The notes beneath the pieces are model-generated. The model had not been told where the DNA came from. It searched no databases and was given only the letters and a program-made list of their open reading frames with translations. From positions 187,183-251,182 of the forward strand of contig CAWJQM010000016.1 in NCBI GenBank assembly GCA_963845095.1: a stretch of DNA of 64,000 bases, in the 5' to 3' direction. The DNA is from an uncultured delta proteobacterium. GTDB taxonomy: Bacteria; Desulfobacterota; Syntrophia; Syntrophales; Smithellaceae. Of the stretch, positions 634 to 51,017 are shown in pieces (position 1 is the first letter of the stretch; every line of letters begins with the position of its first letter). The position numbers and the translations under genes are program-made.

Positions 634-3619
634 ATGATGTCTGATCAATCGAAATGTCCCCGGCCGACTCTGGAAGCCGGCGATGTGCTGCATGGATTTA
701 AAGTCTTACGGGTAGAAACATTGCCGGGGGTAAGAATTACGGCTTATGAAATCGAACATAAAAAAACCGGCGCCAAAGTTTTACATCTGCACGGCGATGA
801 CAGGGAAAATTTGTATGCGATCGGCTTTCGCACTCCGCCTGCTGATTCTACGGGGCTGCCCCATATTTTAGAGCACTCCGTGCTGGCGGGCTCCGAAAAA
901 TATCCGCTCAAAGATGTTTTTAAAGAATTGATGCGCTCCACGCTGCAGACATTTATCAACGCCTTTACCTATCCGGACAAAACAGTTTATCCCGTGGCCA
1001 GCCAGATCAAAGGAGATTTTTTCAATCTTGCCCGCGTTTATACCGATCTGGTGCTGCATCCGCGTCTGCTGAAAGAGACCTTCTTGCAGGAAGGCCATCA
1101 TCTGGAATTTGCCGTACCGGATGATTTGTCAAGCGATCTGATGATCTCCGGCATAGTCTATAACGAAATGAAAGGGGCATACTCTTCGCCGGATTCACTC
1201 ATGTATAAGTCGATACAGGAGGGCTTATATCCCGAGAGCGTTTATTCTTTTGATTCCGGCGGTGATCCCGATGTAATTCCGACCCTGACTTATGAACAGT
1301 TCCGCCAATTCCATCGAACTTATTATTCTCCTTCCAATGCCCGTTTTTTTATTTACGGAGATATCCCGACGGCCGAGCATCTGGCTTTTCTGGAAGAAAT
1401 GCTGGCGGGATTTGAACGCGTAAAAGTCAAGTCGGCGATCAAGAGCCAGAAACGCCTGACTAAACCGCGCATTGTCCGCAGCACTTATCCGATAGATAAA
1501 AATGAATCTCTGGCCGGGAAAGCTTCGGTGAATCTGGCCTGGATGATGTCGGAAAATACCGATTACGAAAATTCACTTATCCTGGAAATTATTTCGGGGC
1601 TGCTTACGGGCAGTTCGGCCAGTCCCCTGCGCAAAGCCCTGATTGATTCGAACCTGGGCGAAGATTTGACCCCGGTCAGTGGAATTGAGGGCGATTTAAA
1701 GCAGTTGCTGTTTGCCGTCGGACTGAGGAATACGGACAGCGCCGATGCTCCGGCTATTGAAAAACTGATTTTGACAACCCTGGAGAATATAGTATCTACC
1801 GGATATGACAATGACCTGATCGAAGGAATTCTGCATCAGATTGAATTTCACGGCAAAGAAATTGTCCGGGGATCATATCCTTACGGAATTGCCTTGATGG
1901 GCAATGTGTTTCAATCCTGGCTTTACGATGGCGATCCATTGATCGGTCTGGATTTTCCCCTGATTATCGAGAAAATACGCACGCTCTGGGCAGCCGACCC
2001 GCAATTATTTCAGAAAATGACCAGGCACTGGTTCCTGGATAATAAGCATCGAATTCTGGCGATAATGGAGCCCGATCCGGATTTTGGTGAAAAGAAGGAA
2101 AAAGAGTATCGGGAAAAGATGGCCCGGCTCAAAGCATCGTTTGAATGATGCCCAACTTGCAGAAATTAATGCGCAGGCGAAGGAATTGAAAAAATTCCAG
2201 TCCGAACCCGATTCCCCGGAAGCTGCGGCCACTATCCCCCAATTACAGATCTCCGATATTCCCCGGGCGGTGGCAATAATTCCGGCACAAAATGCCGTCA
2301 TGGGCGGCGTTCCGGCACTCGAGCATGATATTTTTACCAACGGGATTGCTTATCTCGATTTAGTCTTTGATATTTCCCATATTCCGGAAGAGCTGCAGCT
2401 TTATTTGCCGCTTTTGGGCAAGATCATTTCCGGTATGGGAGCCGCCGGATTTTCCTACGATGAAATGGCCAAACGCATAGCTCTGAAAATGGGAGGATTC
2501 GGCTATGATCCCGGCGCGGGATTTTCCGCCGATGCCGGCAGCTGCTGGCAAAAGATGATTTTTTCCGGATCCGCCCTTTATCGCAATCTGCCGGAGGCGC
2601 TGGATGTTATCAGCGATATTCTCTGTGCCGGTGATCTGAGCAACGAAGAGAGAATGTCTGATTTGATCGCCGAGCGGAAAAACAATCTGCAATCGGCAAT
2701 TGTCCCTTCCGGACATATTTTCGCCCGCCGGGCGGCAGGAGCGGCGCTCACACTGCCGGCGTATCGTGACGAACAATGGAACGGGCGCACACAATTGCGC
2801 TTTGTCCAGGCTGTCGCGCGTAACTTTTCTGCGGCGAAAGCGGATCTGGCCGCAAAGCTGGCAGCGCTAAAAGCAATGATTTTCAGCGCAGATAACCTGA
2901 TTATTAATGTGACTGCCGAAACCGCTGGTTTGCAGCTGGTTGCGGATAATATTGCCCGGCTGCTGAACAGACTGCCGGCAAAGGCAGATAAACAAAAGCA
3001 GGCGGTGCCGCCGCTGCCTGCGGTTTGGGCGGGAATTGCCGTACCGTCGCAAGTTTCATATGTCGCCCGGGTGTTGACGGCGCCGGCATATATCGATCCC
3101 GCCACGGCCCTGCTGATGATTGCGGCCAGGGAATTATCCAACAGCTATCTGTATAAGCATATCCGGGTGCAGGGCGGGGCTTACGGGGGTATGTCCTCCT
3201 GTGATGCATCGCTGGGCCTCTTCTCTTTTCTTTCCTATCGCGATCCTCACCTTGCAGAAACTCTGCAGGTATTCCGGGATGCCGAAGACTTCTTCGCGCA
3301 AAATGAAATTTCTGCCGACGACATGAAAAAGGCCATCATCAGCACGATCGGGATGCTGGATAAGCCTATGGATCCGGGAAGCCGCGGCCATGCGTCCTTG
3401 ATGCGCGACATTGCCGGCGTTACCGATGAGATGCGCCAGAAATTCCGCGAAGAAATATTATCGGCCACGCCGCAAAAGCTGAAGAAAGCATTGGGCGAAT
3501 ATTTCCCGCGCGCATCAAAATCAGCGGCGGTGGCGGTTTATTCGGCACAGGAAAAGATCGATGAAGCCAATAGAAGCCTGAAAGAAAAACTGGTTCTGGA
3601 GCATATTTCTGAAGATTAG
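634..3619 (+). CDS. M16C-family zinc metallopeptidase (PreP/presequence-protease-like insulinase); frame broken once
   Basis: Inverted zinc motif HILEHS (HxxEH). ORFs 634..2148 and 2084..3619 are the N and C halves of one ~990-aa PreP-like protein. They join at ...MARLKAS|NDAQLAEINAQAKELKKFQ near the T-run at 2140-2142. Span length is 3n+1. Confidence 0.85.
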
Positions 3620-6724: not shown

Positions 6725-9369
6725 CTACTTTGTCAGCAACTTTTCCAAGGCCGGAAAAATCTTGCCCAGATTTTCCGGCTGGGTGCCGCCGGCCTGGGCC
6801 ATGTCGGGACGGCCTCCGCCGCTGCCGCCGACAAGCGGGGCGAGTTCCTTGATGATGTTGCCGGCGTGAATACTTTCCGGCCAGGTCTTTGGTAACCATG
6901 CAAAGCAGAAATGCTTTTTCCCCGGCTTTGCCGCCTAGAAAGATTATCCCCGATTCCAGCTTATCCCGCAGCTTGTCGCCGAAATCGCGCAGTGTCTTGG
7001 CATCACTGATATTTACTTCCGTGGCCAGCACTTTCACGCCGCCGATTATCTTTAACCTGACTTAATAAATCTCCGGAGTCTTTGGCGGCCAGTTTCCCTT
7101 TGAGCGCCTCGATTTCCTTTTCCAGATCTTTGCTGTGTTTGAGCAGTTTTTCGGCGCGGTCGGTCAGTTCCGAGGGGCTTGTCTTAAACAACAAGGCGGC
7201 CTTTTTCAGTTCTTCCTCAGCCTTTTGCACATGCAGGAGCGCCTGTCTGCCGGTGACCGCCTCGATGCGGCGCACTCCCGCAGCGATCGCTGATTCATGC
7301 AGCACCTTTAATAAGCCGATATCGCCCGTGCGGGTAACATGTGTGCCGCCGCAGAGCTCCATGCTCATTTCGCCCATTTTGACTATACGCACCGTGGCCC
7401 CGTACTTTTCATCGAATACGGCGGTGGCGCCAGTTTTCAGAGCGTCTTCCAGGGCGCATACCTCGGTTACCACTTCGATATTTTTTCGAATTATGTCGTT
7501 GGCAATATCTTCTATGCGGCTTAGTTCTTCATCGGTGATTTTGGAAAAATGAGAAAAATCAAAGCGCAGCCGTTCGGTATTAACCAGCGACCCGGACTGT
7601 TTGATATGATCCCCCAATACGGCTTTGAGCCCCGCCTGCAAAATATGCGTGCCGGAGTGGTTGGCGGCAATGGCTTTTCTCTTTTCCAGATCAACAATCA
7701 GATGAACTTTATCGCCGGTTTTAATTTTCCCTTTTTGGACAACGCCCTTATGCACGAAGAGTTTTTCCACAGGCTTTTTCGTATCCTGCACTTCGAAGAC
7801 AAAATCCTTGCCTTCCAGATATCCGGTGTCGCCTGCCTGCCCGCCGGATTCGCCATAGAACGGCGTTAATTCCACTATCAGTTCGGCAACCTGCCCTTCA
7901 ATCAGGCTCTCTACCGTTTTCCCCTCCAGAAAGATGGCCGAAATTTTCGATTCTGCTTTTGTCACTCCTTCATAACCGCAGAAGTTCGTGACAATACCGG
8001 AGCTGGATGCTTTCAGGTAGCATTCGTCGATCGATTCCTCCCCGCTGCCTTTCCATGCCCCGCGGGCACGCTCGCGTTGCTGCTCCATTTCGGTTTCAAA
8101 GCCTTCATTATCCAGCGTCAGCCCATCGCGCCTGACAATGTCCGCCGTCAAATCCGTGGGAAAACCGAAAGTATCATAGAGCTTGAATATCAGTGAGCCG
8201 GGGAGAACTGACTTGCCCGCTTTTTTCAGCGCTGCCGTTTCTTCCTGCAGAATGCGCAAACCGGCATCGAGTGTTTCCATGAAACGCTGCTCTTCATTGA
8301 TTATAACCTTGGTAATGAAGGATGACTTTGATTCCAGGTCGGAATAGACATCTTTCATCATAGCAACGACAACTTCAGCGCACTGATAAAGAAAAGGCTT
8401 ATTAATCCCCAGCATTTTGCCATGACGGGCCGCCCGGCGCAAAATGCGCCGCAGAACATAACCGCGGCCTTCATTGCTGGGCAGAATTCCATCACCTATT
8501 AAAAAGGTCACAGCCCGGCTGTGATCGGCGATAACCCGAATGGAGGTATCATCATCGGCTTTATGGCCATAGGTTTTGCCGCTGATTTTTTCGACAAATT
8601 GAATAATGCCGCCGAATAAATCAGTGTCATAGTTGCTTTTTGCGCCCTGAATAACCGCCGTAAGCCTTTCTAAACCCATTCCTGTGTCGATATTCGGTTT
8701 GGGTAGGGGAGTTAATTTCCCTGTTGCGTCGCGGTCAAATTGGGTAAAAACCAGATTCCAGATTTCCAGATAGCGATCGCAGCCGCAATCCAGATCACAT
8801 TCCGGCCTTCCGCAGCCGACGCTGGCGCCCTGATCGTAAATGATTTCGGAGCAGGGGCCGCATGGCCCGGTATCCCCCATCATCCAGAAATTACTTTTTT
8901 CGCCCATCCGGACAATGCGATCGACGGGCACTTTCATTTTTTCATGCCAGATGTTGTAGGCTTCGTCGTCATCCTGATAAACCGTAACCCAGAGTTTATC
9001 TTTCGGCAGCTGCACAACCTCGGTTAAATATTCCCAGCCCCAGGCAATTGCTTCTTCTTTGAAGTAATCGCCAAAGGAAAAATTGCCCAGCATCTCAAAA
9101 AAAGTATGATGGCGGGCGGTGATGCCGACATTTTCCAGATCATTGTGTTTGCCGCCGGCGCGTACGCACTTCTGGGAGGACGCTGCCCTTGTATAGCCCC
9201 TGTTTTCCAAACCTAAGAAGGCGTTTTTGAATTGCACCATCCCCGAATTGGTGAACATTAACGTCGGATCGTCTTTGGGAATGAGAGCTGAGCTGGCAAC
9301 GACAGTATGCCCTTTCCCTGCAAAGTATTGTAAAAAACTTTCCCGAATTTCACTGCCCGTCTTCGCCAT
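6725..9369 (-). CDS. alaS: alanine--tRNA ligase; frame broken twice near the 3' end
   Basis: The 788-aa ORF 7003..9369 is canonical AlaRS. The remaining C-terminus ([16 protein letters not shown]..., then [26 protein letters not shown]...LLTK*) is recovered by frame shifts at ~7044-7054 and ~6861-6868. Stop at 6725-6727. Span length is 3n+2. Confidence 0.9.
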
Positions 9370-9401: not shown

Positions 9402-9521
9402 CTTAGGAGCCGTTGCGAAATAGTTTGTTTTTATGTATTTCGTTACGGCTCCTTATGTCGTTTTATCATTCATTTGACCACCCCTCCGGGGGGCAAGACC
9501 AAGTTATTTTTTCTAAACGGC
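9402..9521 (+). repeat. structured hairpin element, copy A
   Basis: Arms aggagccgttgcgaaat (9405-9421) and atttcgttacggctcct (9437-9453). The core tttgaccacccctccggggggcaagaccaagttatttt is identical to copy B. Confidence 0.75.
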
Positions 9522-10083
9522 GCAATATCAAGCCCGCCGGGAATCCTCTGCCCAGCAGACTTTGAAATATCTTTTTCTTTTCTTTAATATCCTGCAGGCC
9601 GTCTTTTTTCCCGGCCAATTTTTTTCTAATTAACAGAGCAACGGCTTCTTCTTCCGGCATTTCCCGCCGCACTTCTTCTATTGCCTGATCGATCAAATTT
9701 GCCGCAACACCTTTTTCCTTCAGGCTGGCGATAATTTTTCTATTTCCGCAGAGTTTATTTACTGCAAGATTACGCGCCCATTGAGAGGCAAAAGAAGAAT
9801 CATTCAGATACTTCAAATCGTGTAGTTTTTCCAGTGCTTCTTTAATAACAAGTGCGGGAAACCCTTTTTCCCGCAGCTTTTTCTCTACTTCTCGGGCACT
9901 GCGCGGACGCAATGACAAAAAGCGATATGCTTTTTGCTTGGCATGCTGCAAATCAAGATAATCAGCCGTTTTAATTGGATTATCTGCATTATTCGGCACA
10001 GGATCATCCGTCAGTGCTGCATCATACAAATTATTTATGCCGCCGCAGCAATTTTTAAAACGTGACCGGGAATAGCGAATCAC
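9466..10083 (-). CDS. recX: recombination regulator RecX (C-terminal ~17 codons and stop lie inside repeat copy A)
   Basis: RecX three-repeat pattern (..[15 protein letters not shown].., ..[22 protein letters not shown]..). Overlaps the recA stop by 4 nt. The N-terminal extent is uncertain. Confidence 0.8.
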
Positions 10084-13460: not shown

Positions 13461-13628
13461 TCAACCTTCTAAAGCAAAAATATTGCCTTTTTTCAACCAG
13501 TTAAGTTTGTGTAAGCTATCTTCTTTTTGTTTCTGTGTCAAACTTTTTTCAACATATCGTGCTTTAATTGGAACCTTGATCTTTTCCGGTACAGAACCCG
13601 GCAGATGACCAAAACCGGGATAATTCGA
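13461..13628 (-). pseudogene. start-less ORF remnant ending just upstream (10 nt) of pgpA
   Basis: 55 open codons (..PGFGHLPGSVPEKIKVPIKARYVEKSLTQKQKEDSLHKLNWLKKGNIFALEG*) with no ATG or GTG. The frame is closed upstream by a TAG inside tandem-repeat unit 1. Looks like the 3' end of a displaced gene. Confidence 0.3.
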
Positions 13629-13815
13629 CTAAAGAGCTTCAATTCGCTTTGCTTCTTTAGCGGTGTCATTAACCCCGCGTCGCTCCGCTTGCGGGATAAT
13701 TCGACTAAAGAGCTTCAATTCGCTTTGCTTCTTTAGCGGTGTCATTAACCCCGCGTCGCTCCGCTTGCGGGATAATTCGACTAACCAATTCTGCTGCGCT
13801 TTGCTTGCATAATTG
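13617..13815. repeat. 76-bp tandem repeat: two identical units plus a diverged partial third
   Basis: Units 13617-13692 and 13693-13768 are 76/76 identical. The third unit (from 13769) shares gggataattcgactaa, caattc and gctttgctt. The unit contains short internal stems (ctaaagag/cttctttag; ccccgc/gcggg). Confidence 0.9.
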
Positions 13816-13976: not shown

Positions 13977-14258
13977 ATGCCAAGATTAAAAATTGATGAA
14001 GATATTAAACCATTATCCGACGTAAGGACAGGTATCGCGAGCTTTATCAAGCAAGTTCATAATACGAAAAGACCTTTGATTATTACACAACATGGAAAAG
14101 GAGTTGCCGTTTTATTGGACGTCTCTGAATACGAGGCAATGCAGGAGAAACTTGAACTTTTGACGGATGTTCAGAATTCTCTTAGTCAACTCGAAAAGGG
14201 TCAAGGGGTTGCGCAGGAAGATGCAAAAGAAAAAGTTCTCAAGAGAATCCAGCAATGA
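13977..14258 (+). CDS. type II antitoxin, Phd/YefM family
   Basis: 93 aa. ..RPLIITQHGKGVAVLLDVSEYEAMQEKLELL.. is typical of Phd/YefM. ATGA overlap with the downstream toxin. Confidence 0.9.
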   Translation: MPRLKIDEDIKPLSDVRTGIASFIKQVHNTKRPLIITQHGKGVAVLLDVSEYEAMQEKLELLTDVQNSLSQLEKGQGVAQEDAKEKVLKRIQQ

Positions 14259-14551
14259 AAATTATTTGGTCGCCATTGGCTATTGATAGAGCTTCGGAAA
14301 TTGCCGCATATATTGCACAAGACAAACCATCTGCTGCGGAAAAATGGATTAACACGGTATTTTCAAAAATCGAGCAACTGGAATCTTCGCCTGAAATAGG
14401 GAGGGTTGTGCCTGAAATTAGAAATGACCAATTCAGAGAGTTTATCTATGGTAACTACCGCATTATATATCGCATTGAAAAAAAACAAATATCCATTCTT
14501 ACAATTCGGCACGGTAAGCAGATATTGCCGATAGATGAAATTTTGAGCTAA
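14255..14551 (+). CDS. type II toxin, RelE/ParE superfamily (ParE-like)
   Basis: 98 aa. ..GRVVPEIRNDQFREFIYGNYRIIYRIEKKQISILTIRHGKQ.. Translationally coupled to the antitoxin. Confidence 0.85.
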   Translation: MKIIWSPLAIDRASEIAAYIAQDKPSAAEKWINTVFSKIEQLESSPEIGRVVPEIRNDQFREFIYGNYRIIYRIEKKQISILTIRHGKQILPIDEILS

Positions 14552-14676
14552 GCCGTTGTTCGAAAATAACTTGGTCTTGCCCCCCGGAGGGGTGGTCAAA
14601 TAAATGTTGGGTACGGCATAAGGAGCCGTAACGAAATAGAGAAAAAGAACAGGTAATTTTCGTAACGGCTCCTAAG
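14548..14676 (-). repeat. structured hairpin element, copy B (inverted orientation)
   Basis: The reverse complement aligns with copy A over both hairpin arms and the 38-nt core. CTTA is present at both flanks. The toxin stop TAA (14549-14551) lies in its terminus. Confidence 0.8.
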
Positions 14677-14864: not shown

Positions 14865-16260
14865 ATGACCGATCTTATTTTCAGTCTCCAATCCTGGCCG
14901 CGGGCCATAGCCCATATTGACGGCGACGCCTTTTTTACTTCCTGTGAAGAGGCCATCCATCCGGAGCTTAAGGGAAAGCCGCTGATTACCGGCGGCGAGC
15001 GCGGCATTGTCGCCTGCGCCAGTTATGCCGCCAAAAGGGCTGGGGTCAAGCGCGGCGTCCCGCTGCATGAGGCGCGGCAGATCTGCCCTCAGTTAATCAT
15101 CCTGCCTTCCGATTACGAAACTTACAGCCTGTTTTCACAGAGGATGTTCGGCATCATGCGGCGCTTCACCCCCGACGTCGAAGAGTATTCCATTGACGAA
15201 GCCTTTGCCGATATCACCGGCATGCGCCGGGCCCTGCACGCGTCGTACGAAGAAATCGCCCTCCGGATGAAAAAGGAAATTGAAAGAGAGCTGGGCATTA
15301 CCGTTTCCGTGGGCCTGAGCATTACTAAGGTCCTGGCAAAGGTTGCCTCCAAGCACCGGAAACCGGCCGGCATGACGGTAATTAAAGGGAGGGATATTGC
15401 CGGAATATCTGCAGAATCTGCCGGTGGAAAAAGTCTGGGGCATCGGTCAGGCCACAACCAACTATCTGGCCAAGATGAATATTTCCTCTGCGCTGGAATT
15501 TGCCCGTCTGCCCGAAAAAACAGTGCGAAGTAAATTCACCAAACCCGGCGTGGAAATCTGGCAGGAGCTGCGCGGCAATTCAGTTTACCCGGTATCAGCC
15601 GAAGCTAAAAGCTCCTATGCCTCGATCAGCAAGACAAAAACTTTTGCCCCGGCCACAAACAATGCCGAGTATCTTTTTGCCCAACTGATGCGCAATATGG
15701 AATCGGCCTGCATCAAAGCCAGGCGCTATGGGCTTGCTCCGCAGAAAATCGCCGTGTTCCTGAAGAAAAATAATTTTTCTACGCAAGGCAGCGAAGCAAG
15801 GCTTACGCGCCCCTGTGCCTGCCCGCTGGAATTTTCCGGAATTATCCGCGCTCTCTTTGACGCCTGCTTCCGGCCGGAGGAAATTTACCGCGCCACGGGA
15901 GTTATTCTTCTGGATCTGCAACCGGATGCCAACACTCAATATTCTCTTTTTGATGATCCGCCGCAGGCGGAAAAAATAAAGGAACTATACGGTGCCGCCG
16001 ATGAACTGGGGAAAAAATTCGGCAAGCACACTTTGTATCTGGGCAGTTCCCATCCGATTGAGAAACTGGGCAAAGGACGCCGGGGGACTTCCACTGTGCG
16101 CGAACAAACGCGCCTGTTGGGCGAAACGCCGCCGCCGGCATCTGGGCTTGCCGCTGCTTCACATCAAGACGGAAAACTGACAATAATTTGCTGCCGAAAA
16201 ACGAGAGAGCCGGAACAAAGATCGCAAAACGAAAATTATCGGCGCGCCTGCTCTTCATAA
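14865..16260 (+). CDS. dinB: Y-family DNA polymerase (DinB/Pol IV-like); frame broken at ~15390-15399 and probably again at ~16121-16135
   Basis: N-terminus ..IAHIDGDAFFTSCE.., ..YSIDEAFADITG.., SVGLS. The second ORF carries LPVEKVWGIGQ (HhH). A third frame ends ..RRRRHLGLPLLHIKTEN* at 16180, which looks more protein-like than the as-assembled tail ending at 16260. Confidence 0.8.
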
Positions 16261-43170: not shown

Positions 43171-43246
43171 GCCCACGTAGCTCAGTCGGTAGAGCACATC
43201 CTTGGTAAGGATGAGGTCACCAGTTCAATCCTGGTCGTGGGCTCCA
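43171..43246 (+). tRNA. tRNA-Thr (anticodon GGT)
   Basis: Acceptor gcccacg/cgtgggc. Anticodon stem catcc/ggatg with loop ttGGTaa. T-arm accag-ttcaatc-ctggt. CCA is encoded. Confidence 0.9.
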
Positions 43247-43370
43247 GTTAGGGGGCATAAGAAATGACCACCCTGCGGGTCTTGTGGCCTTCAGGTTATG
43301 GCAAGACCATTTCGTTATGGCCCCTTATGCCGGTTGCGTTGTTATAGTTATTATTTGATGACGGCTTAAG
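43247..43370 (+). repeat. structured hairpin element, divergent copy D
   Basis: Starts right after the tRNA-Thr CCA. Arms agggggcataagaaatg / catttcgttatggcccct. Shares ccttatgcc, tatttga and the terminal acggcttaag with copies B and C. Confidence 0.65.
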
Positions 43371-43378
43371 GGAGAGTT

Positions 43379-43528
43379 ATGCGGAATAATATTATTTTAG
43401 CTTGTACGGACTGCAAGCAAAGGAATTACACAACAACAAAAAACAAGCGTACTATGCAAAACCGCCTGGAGCTGAAGAAGTATTGTAAGTTTTGCCGGGG
43501 GCACAAGTTGCACAGGGAAACCAAGTAA
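43379..43528 (+). CDS. rpmG: 50S ribosomal protein L33 (49 aa; below the ORF-track cutoff)
   Basis: Manual translation: [52 protein letters not shown] aagggagag. Confidence 0.9.
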
Positions 43529-44890: not shown

Positions 44891-45589
44891 ATGTTAAGAA
44901 GAGGCAAACGTATATTAGCAGCAAAAGCAAAGGTTGAGCCAACTAAGCGTTATACTCTGAAAGAGGCAGCGGAAATGGTTGTATCAATGGCCGGCGTCAA
45001 ATTTGATGAAACAGTGGATGCCGCCGTCCGTTTGGGAGTTAATCCCGCCCATGCCGATCAAATGGTCAGGGGAAGCGTTGTTTTGCCCAACGGTTTGGGT
45101 AAAACAGTCAGAGTGCTGGTTTTTGCCAAGGGTGAAAAGGAAAAAGAAGCCCTGGAAGCCGGGGCCGATTTAGTTGGTAACGATGAAATTATTGAAAAGA
45201 TAAAAGGCGGCTGGTTTGAATTTGACCGCGTTGTCGCAACACCTGATATGATGGGTGCGGTGGGGAAAATCGGCAAGATTTTAGGCCCCCGCGGTTTGAT
45301 GCCCAATCCCAAAGTCGGCACTGTTACTTTTGAAGTGGGCAACGCCGTGAAGGAACTTAAAGCCGGTAAGGTTGAATTTCGTGTGGAAAAAGCGGGAATT
45401 GTACATTCTCCCGTCGGGAAAGTTTCTTTTGGCGCCGAAAAATTGCAGGAGAATATTCAAGCTTTGCTGGAAACAATTATCAAATTAAAACCCTCTGCCA
45501 GCAAGGGGATCTATATTAAAAGCGTTTCCCTTTCCAGTACAATGGGCGCCGGTGTGAAAGTTGATCCGCTCGATATTAAGAGCGCTTAG
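44891..45589 (+). CDS. rplA: 50S ribosomal protein L1
   Basis: 232 aa of canonical L1. The stop TAG (45587-45589) lies in the terminus of repeat copy C. Confidence 0.95.
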
Positions 45590-45692
45590 GAGCCGTTACG
45601 AAATAAGCTGTTCGCTTACTGGATTTCGTTACGGATCCTTATGCCGTTCCCAAAGGTTATTTGACCAAGTTATTTTTGGGCAACGGCTTAAG
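45585..45692 (+). repeat. structured hairpin element, copy C (internal deletion of the CCCCTCCGGGGGG core)
   Basis: cttaggagccgttacgaaat..atttcgttacggatccttatgccgt..tatttgaccaagttatttt..aacggcttaag. Lacks the ~21 nt between the two gacca direct repeats that are present in copies A and B. Confidence 0.8.
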
Positions 45693-45922
45693 TGTAGAAA
45701 ATGATATTTTAAAGATAAAAGGTCGAAGATAGCAGGTACAGAAGTTTAAACGTAATGAGGCCTGCCGAGACTCGTGGAATGAAAAGAGTTGCTTTATTTA
45801 AGGTAAACAATTTTTAGAAAACGGGCATCGGATTGAAGGAAAGGTTACCGTTTTTATTCTGTATGTGGCTATATTCTCCGGCCTCGTGCATAATAAAATA
45901 ATATTGAAAGGAGGCTGATATA
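45693..45922 (+). promoter_or_regulatory. rplJ 5' leader (candidate L10 autoregulatory leader)
   Basis: A 230-nt untranslated gap before rplJ with paired segments (gcagg..cctgc; aaacgg..ccgttt+T-run). The position matches known L10-leader regulation. The structure was not verified against a covariance model. Confidence 0.3.

Positions 45923-46899: not shown

Positions 46900-51017
<4,118 letters not shown>

Follow-up and report, generated by a model that had tools for sequence, protein, structure and literature searches.

Four related elements at gene ends

The window, the whole 64-kb stretch of DNA that was analysed, contains four related elements of 105–129 bp and none besides. It belongs to a Smithellaceae/Syntrophaceae MAG; its NusG is identical to PKN69747.1, from a MAG labelled ‘Deltaproteobacteria’, and other proteins in the same 90% clusters bear the names Smithella, Smithellaceae or Syntrophaceae. 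The first-pass annotation had reported four copies, here termed A to D; all of them are present where it had placed them, and their sequences align end to end. Copy A (+ strand; left TTA 9403–9405, body 9406–9521, right TTA decayed to GCA at 9522–9524) is located in the minus-strand recA-recX-alaS operon, between recX and alaS, and is antisense to the operon. The last 18 codons of recX come from the sequence of copy A; the RecX domains stop at residue 188 of 205, before the element-derived codons. Copy B, the flagged copy (− strand; TTA 14673–14675, body 14552–14672, TTA 14549–14551), lies between a phd/parE toxin-antitoxin pair and dinB, and its TTA at 14549–14551 serves as the stop codon (TAA on the + strand) of the parE toxin gene (14255–14551). 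Neither the RecX nor the ParE protein of the window had an exact match on any other contig.

Copy C (+ strand; TTA 43248–43250, body 43251–43365, TTA 43366–43368) sits between tRNA-Thr(GGU) (43171–43246) and the ribosome-binding site of rpmG, which starts at 43379. It had been described as divergent, and belongs to a GGGGGC/GGCCCC subfamily. Copy D (+ strand; TTA 45586–45588, body 45589–45687, TTA 45688–45690) separates rplA from the L10 leader and rplJ. The TAG stop of rplA (45587–45589) is composed of the target TA and the first G of the element, and a weak match to the L10 leader begins at 45705, beyond the copy. None of the four insertions disrupts the downstream ribosome-binding site. The first-pass annotation placed every copy immediately 3′ of a gene or tRNA; copy A is not simply 3′ of a gene but sits within the last codons of recX.

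The copies were also detected with a profile HMM built solely from copies of other genomes. The profile matches exactly four places in the window, with E-values of 1e-22 (D), 3e-19 (B), 2e-13 (A) and 7e-9 (C, a partial match). For the motif TTTCGTTAYGGNNCCTTATG, the window has four occurrences where chance would give 0.12. A window search with the 15-mer of the left arm returned the eight expected arms minus the divergent left arm of copy C, plus one match at chance level, and revealed no further real copy. The element bodies measure 99–121 bp. They are small (under ∼300 bp) and non-coding; the only open reading frame is a spurious one of 47 aa that crosses copy D.

The family in other genomes

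One genome per species was scanned with the internal motif. At least 119 loci matched, of which at least 116 are real, from at least 51 genomes; L020, L053 (Lachnospiraceae) and L081 are chance motif matches with no element present. The first-pass annotation had regarded a lack of further copies as evidence against mobility, and this number of additional copies removes that objection. The host range is wide. The hosts among the matches listed comprise ∼40 Desulfobacterota, four NC10/Methylomirabilota MAGs, five Holophagae, one Nitrospirota bin and one Chromatiaceae bin. The Desulfobacterota listed, Desulfobulbales included, are Desulfobulbaceae, Desulfocapsaceae, Desulfurivibrionaceae, Desulfonema and Smithella/Syntrophaceae, and the Desulfobulbaceae include the isolate Hydrosulfovibrio ferrireducens and Desulfobulbus sp. 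Tol-SR. The copies in the Nitrospirota and Chromatiaceae bins share 96% and 91% identity with copies from NC10, and both bins have an NC10-like G+C content, so that mis-binning is as likely as transfer in these two cases.

Copies are dispersed, with four in the 64 kb of the window and multiple copies in the genomes listed, and one NC10 MAG carries at least 14–16. Beyond the copy that brought in each listed locus, ∼0.018 further copies per kb were found. Among the matches listed, the median identity of copies is 86% within a genome and 72% between genomes, and the nearest relative of copy D is 83% identical, from the MAG HGW-Deltaproteobacteria-12. The G+C content of the listed hosts ranges from 42 to 68%; near-identical ends across such hosts point to repeated horizontal spread of a transposase.

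Terminal inverted repeats and a predicted double hairpin

The consensus element has 106 nt and, between its two flanking TTA triplets, reads GGAGCCGTTACGAAATAAC-X-loop-TTTCGTTACGGCTCC-TTA-TGCCGTT-...-X′-GTTATTnTTTGACAACGGC. Its outer ends are imperfect terminal inverted repeats, with pairing between GGAGCCGTTACGAAATAAC-X on the left and X′-GTTATTnTTTGACAACGGC on the right. The ends are inverse to each other across ∼20–28 nt, with an extra GGA in the left one. The earlier description of the second terminus as an imperfect inverse of the first is borne out by 95% pairing of GCCGTT with AACGGC. In the middle of the element, the left end recurs in inverted form (TTTCGTTACGGCTCC); a TTA follows, and then the first part of the right end, likewise inverted (TGCCGTT). 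With internal inverted copies of both ends, a single strand could fold either as two hairpins, S1 and S2, or as one long foldback. Both types of fold are predicted, depending on the copy, with z-scores of about −4 to −10. In copy D (z = −7.7), S1 spans 45589–45638 on the + strand, with the left arm GGAGCCGTTACGAAAT, the internal arm ATTTCGTTACGGATCC and a conserved central T-T mismatch; S2 with the right terminal repeat spans 45644–45687 (+), where GCCGTT...AACGGC is arranged around X′-GTTATT.

Pairing was counted over 86 distinct copies, for which slid controls gave 34–47% paired cells. S1 is paired in 96.7% of cells, and six of its pairs have changed on both sides (e.g., A-U in 64 copies and G-C in 14). 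S2 is paired in 95.3% of cells, with one pair that is U-A in 59 copies and C-G in seven. X and X′ are paired in 63% of cells with many compensatory types, and their complementarity is wholly lost in one NC10 subfamily. Stem covariation, proposed earlier as a check, is thus seen as compensatory changes in S1, S2 and X/X′ alike. The loops, by contrast with the earlier statement that they differ completely between copies, share a conserved start, ATAAC-X, whose complement X′-GTTAT lies near the right end.

The T-T mismatch of S1 results from the presence of CGTTACG on the same strand in both arms. The T of the left arm is invariant (86/86 copies). The right arm was fixed by the search pattern, so its conservation is partly a matter of ascertainment, and the left arm alone is independent evidence.

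A nested module and size variants

Copies A and B had been noted to have an identical core. The segment is indeed the same in both; it is, rather than a core, the right-arm segment TTTGACCAAGTTATTTT, as found in copy D, split by a 21-nt module, CCCCTCCGGGGGGCAAGACCA. The module occupies 9481–9501 (+) in copy A, where it is bordered by a repeated (G)ACCA, and 14572–14592 (−) in copy B, as located by alignment and blastn-short. Copy D lacks it and its site is uninterrupted. A longer relative of the module, GACCACCCTGCGGGTCTTGTGGCCTTCAGGTTATGGCAAGACCA, fills the S1 loop of copy C (43266–43309, +), and blastn-short detected module-related inserts in three copies of other genomes (L028, L039, in the opposite orientation, and L079).

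Size varies further across the family. One variant of 52 nt (L102) consists of nothing but the two ends, and two others (L008 and L037) have a minimal S2. Head-to-tail tandems with one common TTA occur at three loci (L030, L074 and L120). Internal deletions and the nested 21-nt module would account for the size variants.

TTA flanks and overlap with stop codons

In 99 distinct copies among the matches listed, the left flank is TTA in 97–99% and the right flank in 87–95%, and no further target consensus was found in the flanks. The duplicated flank is therefore TTA and not CTTA as initially reported; the preceding base varies (C in 37, G in 29, T in 23 and A in 10 of the 99). In the window, copies B, C and D have TTA on both sides, and one side is decayed in copy A.

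The copies are enriched at stop codons. An overlap with the stop of an open reading frame of at least 80 codons was found for 57 of 97 listed copies (59%); random TTA sites drawn from the same loci gave 13%. The 31 overlaps on the left are always TAG, formed by the target TA and the first G of the element. The 38 on the right lie on the other strand and comprise 26 TAA, eight TGA and four TAG; 12 copies overlap a stop on both sides. Right-flank variants, TCA and CTA, are mostly reverse-strand stop codons of convergent genes, which indicates that the right triplet evolves as host DNA. The figures of 31 left and 38 right reveal no orientation preference at stop codons. Nor was orientation related to local GC skew (62 vs 71 copies, p = 0.49), a noisy proxy that provides weak evidence.

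TTA is the complement of TAA and overlaps T-TAA or T-TAG, so that many tolerated targets would be stop codons. The stop would be preserved upon insertion, since TTA followed by the element's G reads TAG on the left, and the duplicated TTA on the right reads TAA on the other strand. Stop codons may offer TTA especially in G+C-rich genomes, and insertions that restore the stop may survive selection. A stop-preserving design together with purifying selection against intragenic insertions would place copies exactly at gene ends; active targeting of gene ends may play a part as well. The combination of a TTA target with a first base G, which allows the element to land on a stop codon without destroying it, may aid high copy number in compact genomes.

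Empty sites in relatives and a difference within the species

A metagenome scan with the L1 protein yielded 80 loci from relatives whose L1 is 72–93% identical. A profile search found the element at sites C and D in none of the 80. Between rplA and rplJ, the window has a spacer of 336 nt; most relatives have 188–284 nt, ∼100 nt less. At site D, relatives read AGCGC-TTA-AT, and their L1 stop codon TAA overlaps that TTA; the window reads AGCGC-TTA-(GGAGCC...AACGGC, 99 nt)-TTA-AGTG. At site C, six relatives have the tRNA followed by CTCCAG-TTA-AGGAGAnTTATG and rpmG (in short, CCAG-TTA-AGGAGA), and the window has CTCCAG-TTA, the 115-nt element and TTA-AGGGAGAGTTATG, with the short right flank AGGGAG.

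Site A was compared with two relatives whose RecA is at least 90% identical (L206 and L207). These have GGCTTGATAT-TAA-ATAAATTAGGAAAGATACCGGAGGAA ahead of the ATG of alaS, an empty form that can be written GATAT-TAA-ATAAATTAGG (starting ATAAA). The reverse strand of the window reads GATAT-TGC, the element, and then TAA-GAAAAACAGG, with one duplicate intact and the other decayed to TGC. In both relatives, recX continues and overlaps the start of alaS. Another RecA relative, L205, has a different gene order and is uninformative for this site.

Copies A, C and D thus each correspond to an empty site with a single TTA in relatives and to TTA-element-TTA in the window: the elements were inserted, and TTA is duplicated around them. 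In sequence, such a 3-nt duplication looks the same as an element that carries one TTA and lies beside another, and the two cannot be told apart. The possibility raised at the outset that the four loci are vertically inherited 3′ UTRs is contradicted by the 80 relatives that lack the element at C and D.

The family is also polymorphic within the species. One contig of this species, from a different sample (L120, identical L1), contains a fifth copy of 85 nt plus one TTA, placed exactly at the left TTA of copy C (43248–43250). This indicates that the copy number of the family has changed within the species, by gain or by loss. The difference from the window could instead be a deletion between repeated TTAGGGGGC.

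A probable non-autonomous transposon family and its candidate enzyme

The elements very probably represent a family of non-autonomous DNA transposons (MITEs) of ∼105 bp that are moved in trans at TTA by a 3-nt staggered cut. The first-pass annotation had favoured a MITE on account of the terminal inverted repeats and the short flank duplication, and this reading is strengthened by the empty sites for three of the four copies, the extra copy in the same species and the presence of the family in at least 51 genomes. A transposase encoded elsewhere would bind the imperfect terminal inverted repeats and make a 3-nt staggered cut at TTA, and repair would duplicate the TTA. The parent would be a TTA-flanked transposase unit bounded by GGAGCCGTTACGAAA and ACAACGGC.

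The best guess for the enzyme is a DDE transposase of the IS5 family, of the IS427/IS1031 type, as judged from the 3-bp TTA duplication and the first bases of the ends, because elements of this type duplicate TTA/TAA. IS1237, of the IS427/IS1031 group of the IS5 family, duplicates TTA/TAA and has ends that start with GAGG (PMC2516522, Table 1). No IS5-family member with matching ends was found in the ∼0.9 Mb around the copies, in plasmids or in viral contigs, and no transposase gene is linked to the repeats there. In the related eukaryotic system, PIF/Harbinger-Tourist, Tourist MITEs duplicate TTA/TAA too.

Searches for the parent returned only members of the family itself. The ∼0.9 Mb flanking the copies contains no autonomous element that combines the family's ends with a transposase. 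The consensus element has no match among plasmids, and the left end has none among viral contigs. Solo left ends, considered as a possible parent IS, turned out to be truncated copies or MITE pairs flanking ordinary genes, and left-end/right-end pairs 200–6000 nt apart were all pairs of separate MITEs. A screen of the listed loci for TTA/TAA-flanked inverted repeats 500–3000 nt apart likewise gave only MITE pairs. Clustering of all open reading frames near copies disclosed no recurrent transposase-like neighbour.

Alternative explanations

A plain terminal-repeat model does not explain the strong conservation of the internal arm and of the T-T mismatch in S1. These features, together with S2 and a loop-to-tail pairing that co-varies between copies, could mean that the double hairpin is the substrate of an unrecognised mobilising enzyme acting on folded single strands, or that the hairpins are selected for a host role at gene ends. 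If true, either version would account for internal arms conserved across phyla to the same degree as the termini, and for the failure to find an ordinary IS with the same ends; taken together, the two have perhaps a small chance of being right. It is rather less probable that the family derives from a single-strand DNA transposon, as a PATE of the IS200/IS605 type or a REP-like element with a RAYT, an alternative already offered in the first-pass annotation. An HUH enzyme would then act on one strand, where it recognises S1/S2, cut at each flanking TTA and place the element 3′ of a TTA, with no true duplication. A hairpin at each end, the CGTTACG of both S1 arms with its invariant mismatch, the tandems that have one TTA in common (L030, L074 and L120) and the lack of a DDE partner in the ∼0.9 Mb around copies all fit this model. 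However, the ends are inversely repeated over ∼20–28 nt, a trait that PATEs lack, and TTA is present on both sides, with the right one drifting like flanking DNA. The consensus also has no GTAG-type REP head, no tnpA- or RAYT-like gene recurs near copies, and orientation shows no bias by local GC skew, noisy as that proxy is (62 vs 71).

The position at gene ends, the compensatory stem changes and the strong predicted folds (z down to −9.6) would suit a structured RNA or 3′-UTR element, such as a terminator, an mRNA stabiliser or a small RNA, that is kept by selection, with mobility secondary or absent. Such a role is very unlikely. The elements lie in either orientation relative to the overlapped gene (31 same-strand and 38 opposite), copy A is antisense to its operon, terminator and promoter scans of the four window copies are at background, and Rfam has no match on the elements. 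Moreover, close relatives have empty sites, and these transcripts therefore do not contain the elements as a conserved part. There is next to no likelihood that the elements are sites of site-specific recombination (integron attC or Xer/dif-like) that mark gene cassettes, a reading to which the imperfect palindrome, the attC-like size and the location directly after genes might lead. The flanked genes are core housekeeping genes (rplA, tRNA-Thr/rpmG and recX/alaS), syntenic in relatives without the element; the consensus lacks RYYYAAC/GTTRRRY core sites; and copies occur in both orientations, form no arrays and have no recurrent integrase neighbour.

Relation to known repeat families

Bacterial MITEs are ∼100–200 bp long, form strong hairpins, are intergenic near genes and are occasionally fused with host reading frames (PMC3184786, PMC10969869). 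The window family displays all the structural characters that these reviews give for MITEs, and no known parent was found around the copies. Like Correia/CREE of Neisseria, RUP of S. pneumoniae, ERIC of enterobacteria and Nezha of cyanobacteria, the elements are non-coding, with terminal inverted repeats and a short target duplication, and Nezha offers the same picture of empty and filled sites between relatives. They have, however, no detectable sequence similarity to Correia, RUP, ERIC or Nezha. Correia, RUP and ERIC duplicate TA and the window family TTA. Those MITEs are each confined to one genus or family, whereas the window family extends across several phyla and has an internal inverted copy of both ends.

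Chunjie of Geobacter uraniireducens is a MITE from the former ‘deltaproteobacteria’ that, like the window family, occurs within operons and overlaps genes without breaking them. It is 178–235 bp long; its terminal repeats measure 21 bp and its direct repeats 9 bp (PMC3184786). Its size and 9-bp repeats, against ∼105 bp and the 3-bp TTA here, led to its rejection as a relative. REP/BIME sequences with their RAYTs and the PATEs of IS200/IS605 resemble the window family in being short, hairpin-forming, highly repeated and extragenic, and the conserved mismatch in the S1 stem recalls protein-recognised hairpins. Both groups, unlike the window family, lack target duplication and terminal inverted repeats. 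REPs are 20–40 nt long, have a conserved tetranucleotide head and flank a RAYT gene; the unit described here, of 106 nt, has none of these features.

Rfam returned no match on the elements at the gathering threshold or at E-values up to 10. A literature search with the arm sequences gave one irrelevant fungal match, and a search for literature on MITEs in these host taxa found none. The first-pass annotation did not recognise the element as a named family, in agreement with this absence of Rfam, literature, plasmid and viral-contig matches. The family is apparently an unnamed one of a well-known kind; it is no new category of mobile element.

Its notable features are the host breadth, the stop-preserving design, the second copy of each end inside the element and the tiny nested module. 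Its value lies mainly in the annotation of poorly studied anaerobes. In Desulfobacterota, NC10 and Holophagae, the repeats account for odd stop codons, C-terminal tails (as in recX) and enlarged spacers. Metagenome assemblies are likely to break at them, and polymorphic copies are usable as strain markers.

A hairpin module nested within the MITE copies

Some copies of the MITE family carry a tiny, G+C-rich hairpin module nested within them. The module is found in both orientations and its position within the host element varies. In the window it occupies 9481-9501 in copy A, 14572-14592 (minus strand) in copy B and 43266-43309 in copy C, and it is also present at seven loci from other genomes or metagenomes (L001, L007, L027, L028, L039, L068 and L079). 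The short form is the 21-nt sequence CCCCTNCGGGKGGCAAGWCCA, and a longer form includes GGTCTTGTGRCCTTCAGGTTATGRCAAGACC; the module is bordered by a short (G)ACCA repeat. Copy D (45586..45690, +) represents the uninterrupted site. Among the sequences examined, the nested module was found solely within MITE copies.

MITE insertions at gene ends and within-species polymorphism

Copy A (9403..9524, +) contributes coding sequence to its neighbor: the final 18 codons of recX (9466-9521, minus strand) come from this copy, its nested module included. The recX genes of relatives end 21 codons past the insertion point and overlap the alaS start. Copy B (14549..14675, minus strand) adjoins a toxin-antitoxin pair, in which the genes for a Phd/YefM antitoxin and a ParE toxin (13977-14551) overlap by 4 nt, and the right-hand TTA duplicate of the copy doubles as the TAA stop codon of the ParE toxin gene. 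The sequence directly 3' of copy D (45705-45865) resembles the ribosomal protein L10 leader, though weakly (28.9 bits against a gathering score of 44), which places the insertion point between the rplA stop codon and the L10 leader.

The site of copy C (43248..43368, +) differs between members of the species. The same-species contig L120 (JGI sample 3300036987) carries at 1272-1362 an additional 85-nt copy and one TTA, arranged head to tail with copy C, at the site equivalent to 43248-43250 of the window. The two sequences display a within-species presence/absence polymorphism.

A -35-like hexamer at the right end

Most of the non-window copies among the matches listed contain a perfect -35-like hexamer, TTGACA, at a distance of 8 nt from the right-hand end (TTTGACAACGGCTTA), as exemplified by L063, a locus from outside the window, at 3140-3161. 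The four copies in the window all have degenerate versions of it. As judged from the sequence, TTGACA together with a suitable flank could constitute an outward-facing hybrid promoter.

Host range and assembly quality

Copies assigned to a Nitrospirota bin (L074) and a Chromatiaceae bin (L006) are 96% and 91% identical, respectively, to those of NC10 (Methylomirabilota), and the flanking DNA at both loci has an NC10-like G+C content of 0.63-0.64. These two apparent host groups may not be genuine hosts but the result of NC10 contigs having been mis-binned.

Three window genes look split or shortened. The rpoB gene (46900-50425) is divided into two ORFs (46900-47490 and 47474-50425) and is intact in L120 (1371 aa); alaS (7003-9369) encodes 788 aa versus 880 aa in another locus, L203; and dinB (14865-16260) is spread over two overlapping ORFs. 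This pattern suggests that the assembly contains indel errors, as opposed to true biological changes. A 76-nt unit repeated in tandem (13616-13806) lies in the interval that separates pgpA from the phd/parE pair; its 2.2 copies are 100% identical, and a partial third copy that has diverged comes after them. The repeat could be a duplication within the remains of a gene, or it could stem from misassembly.
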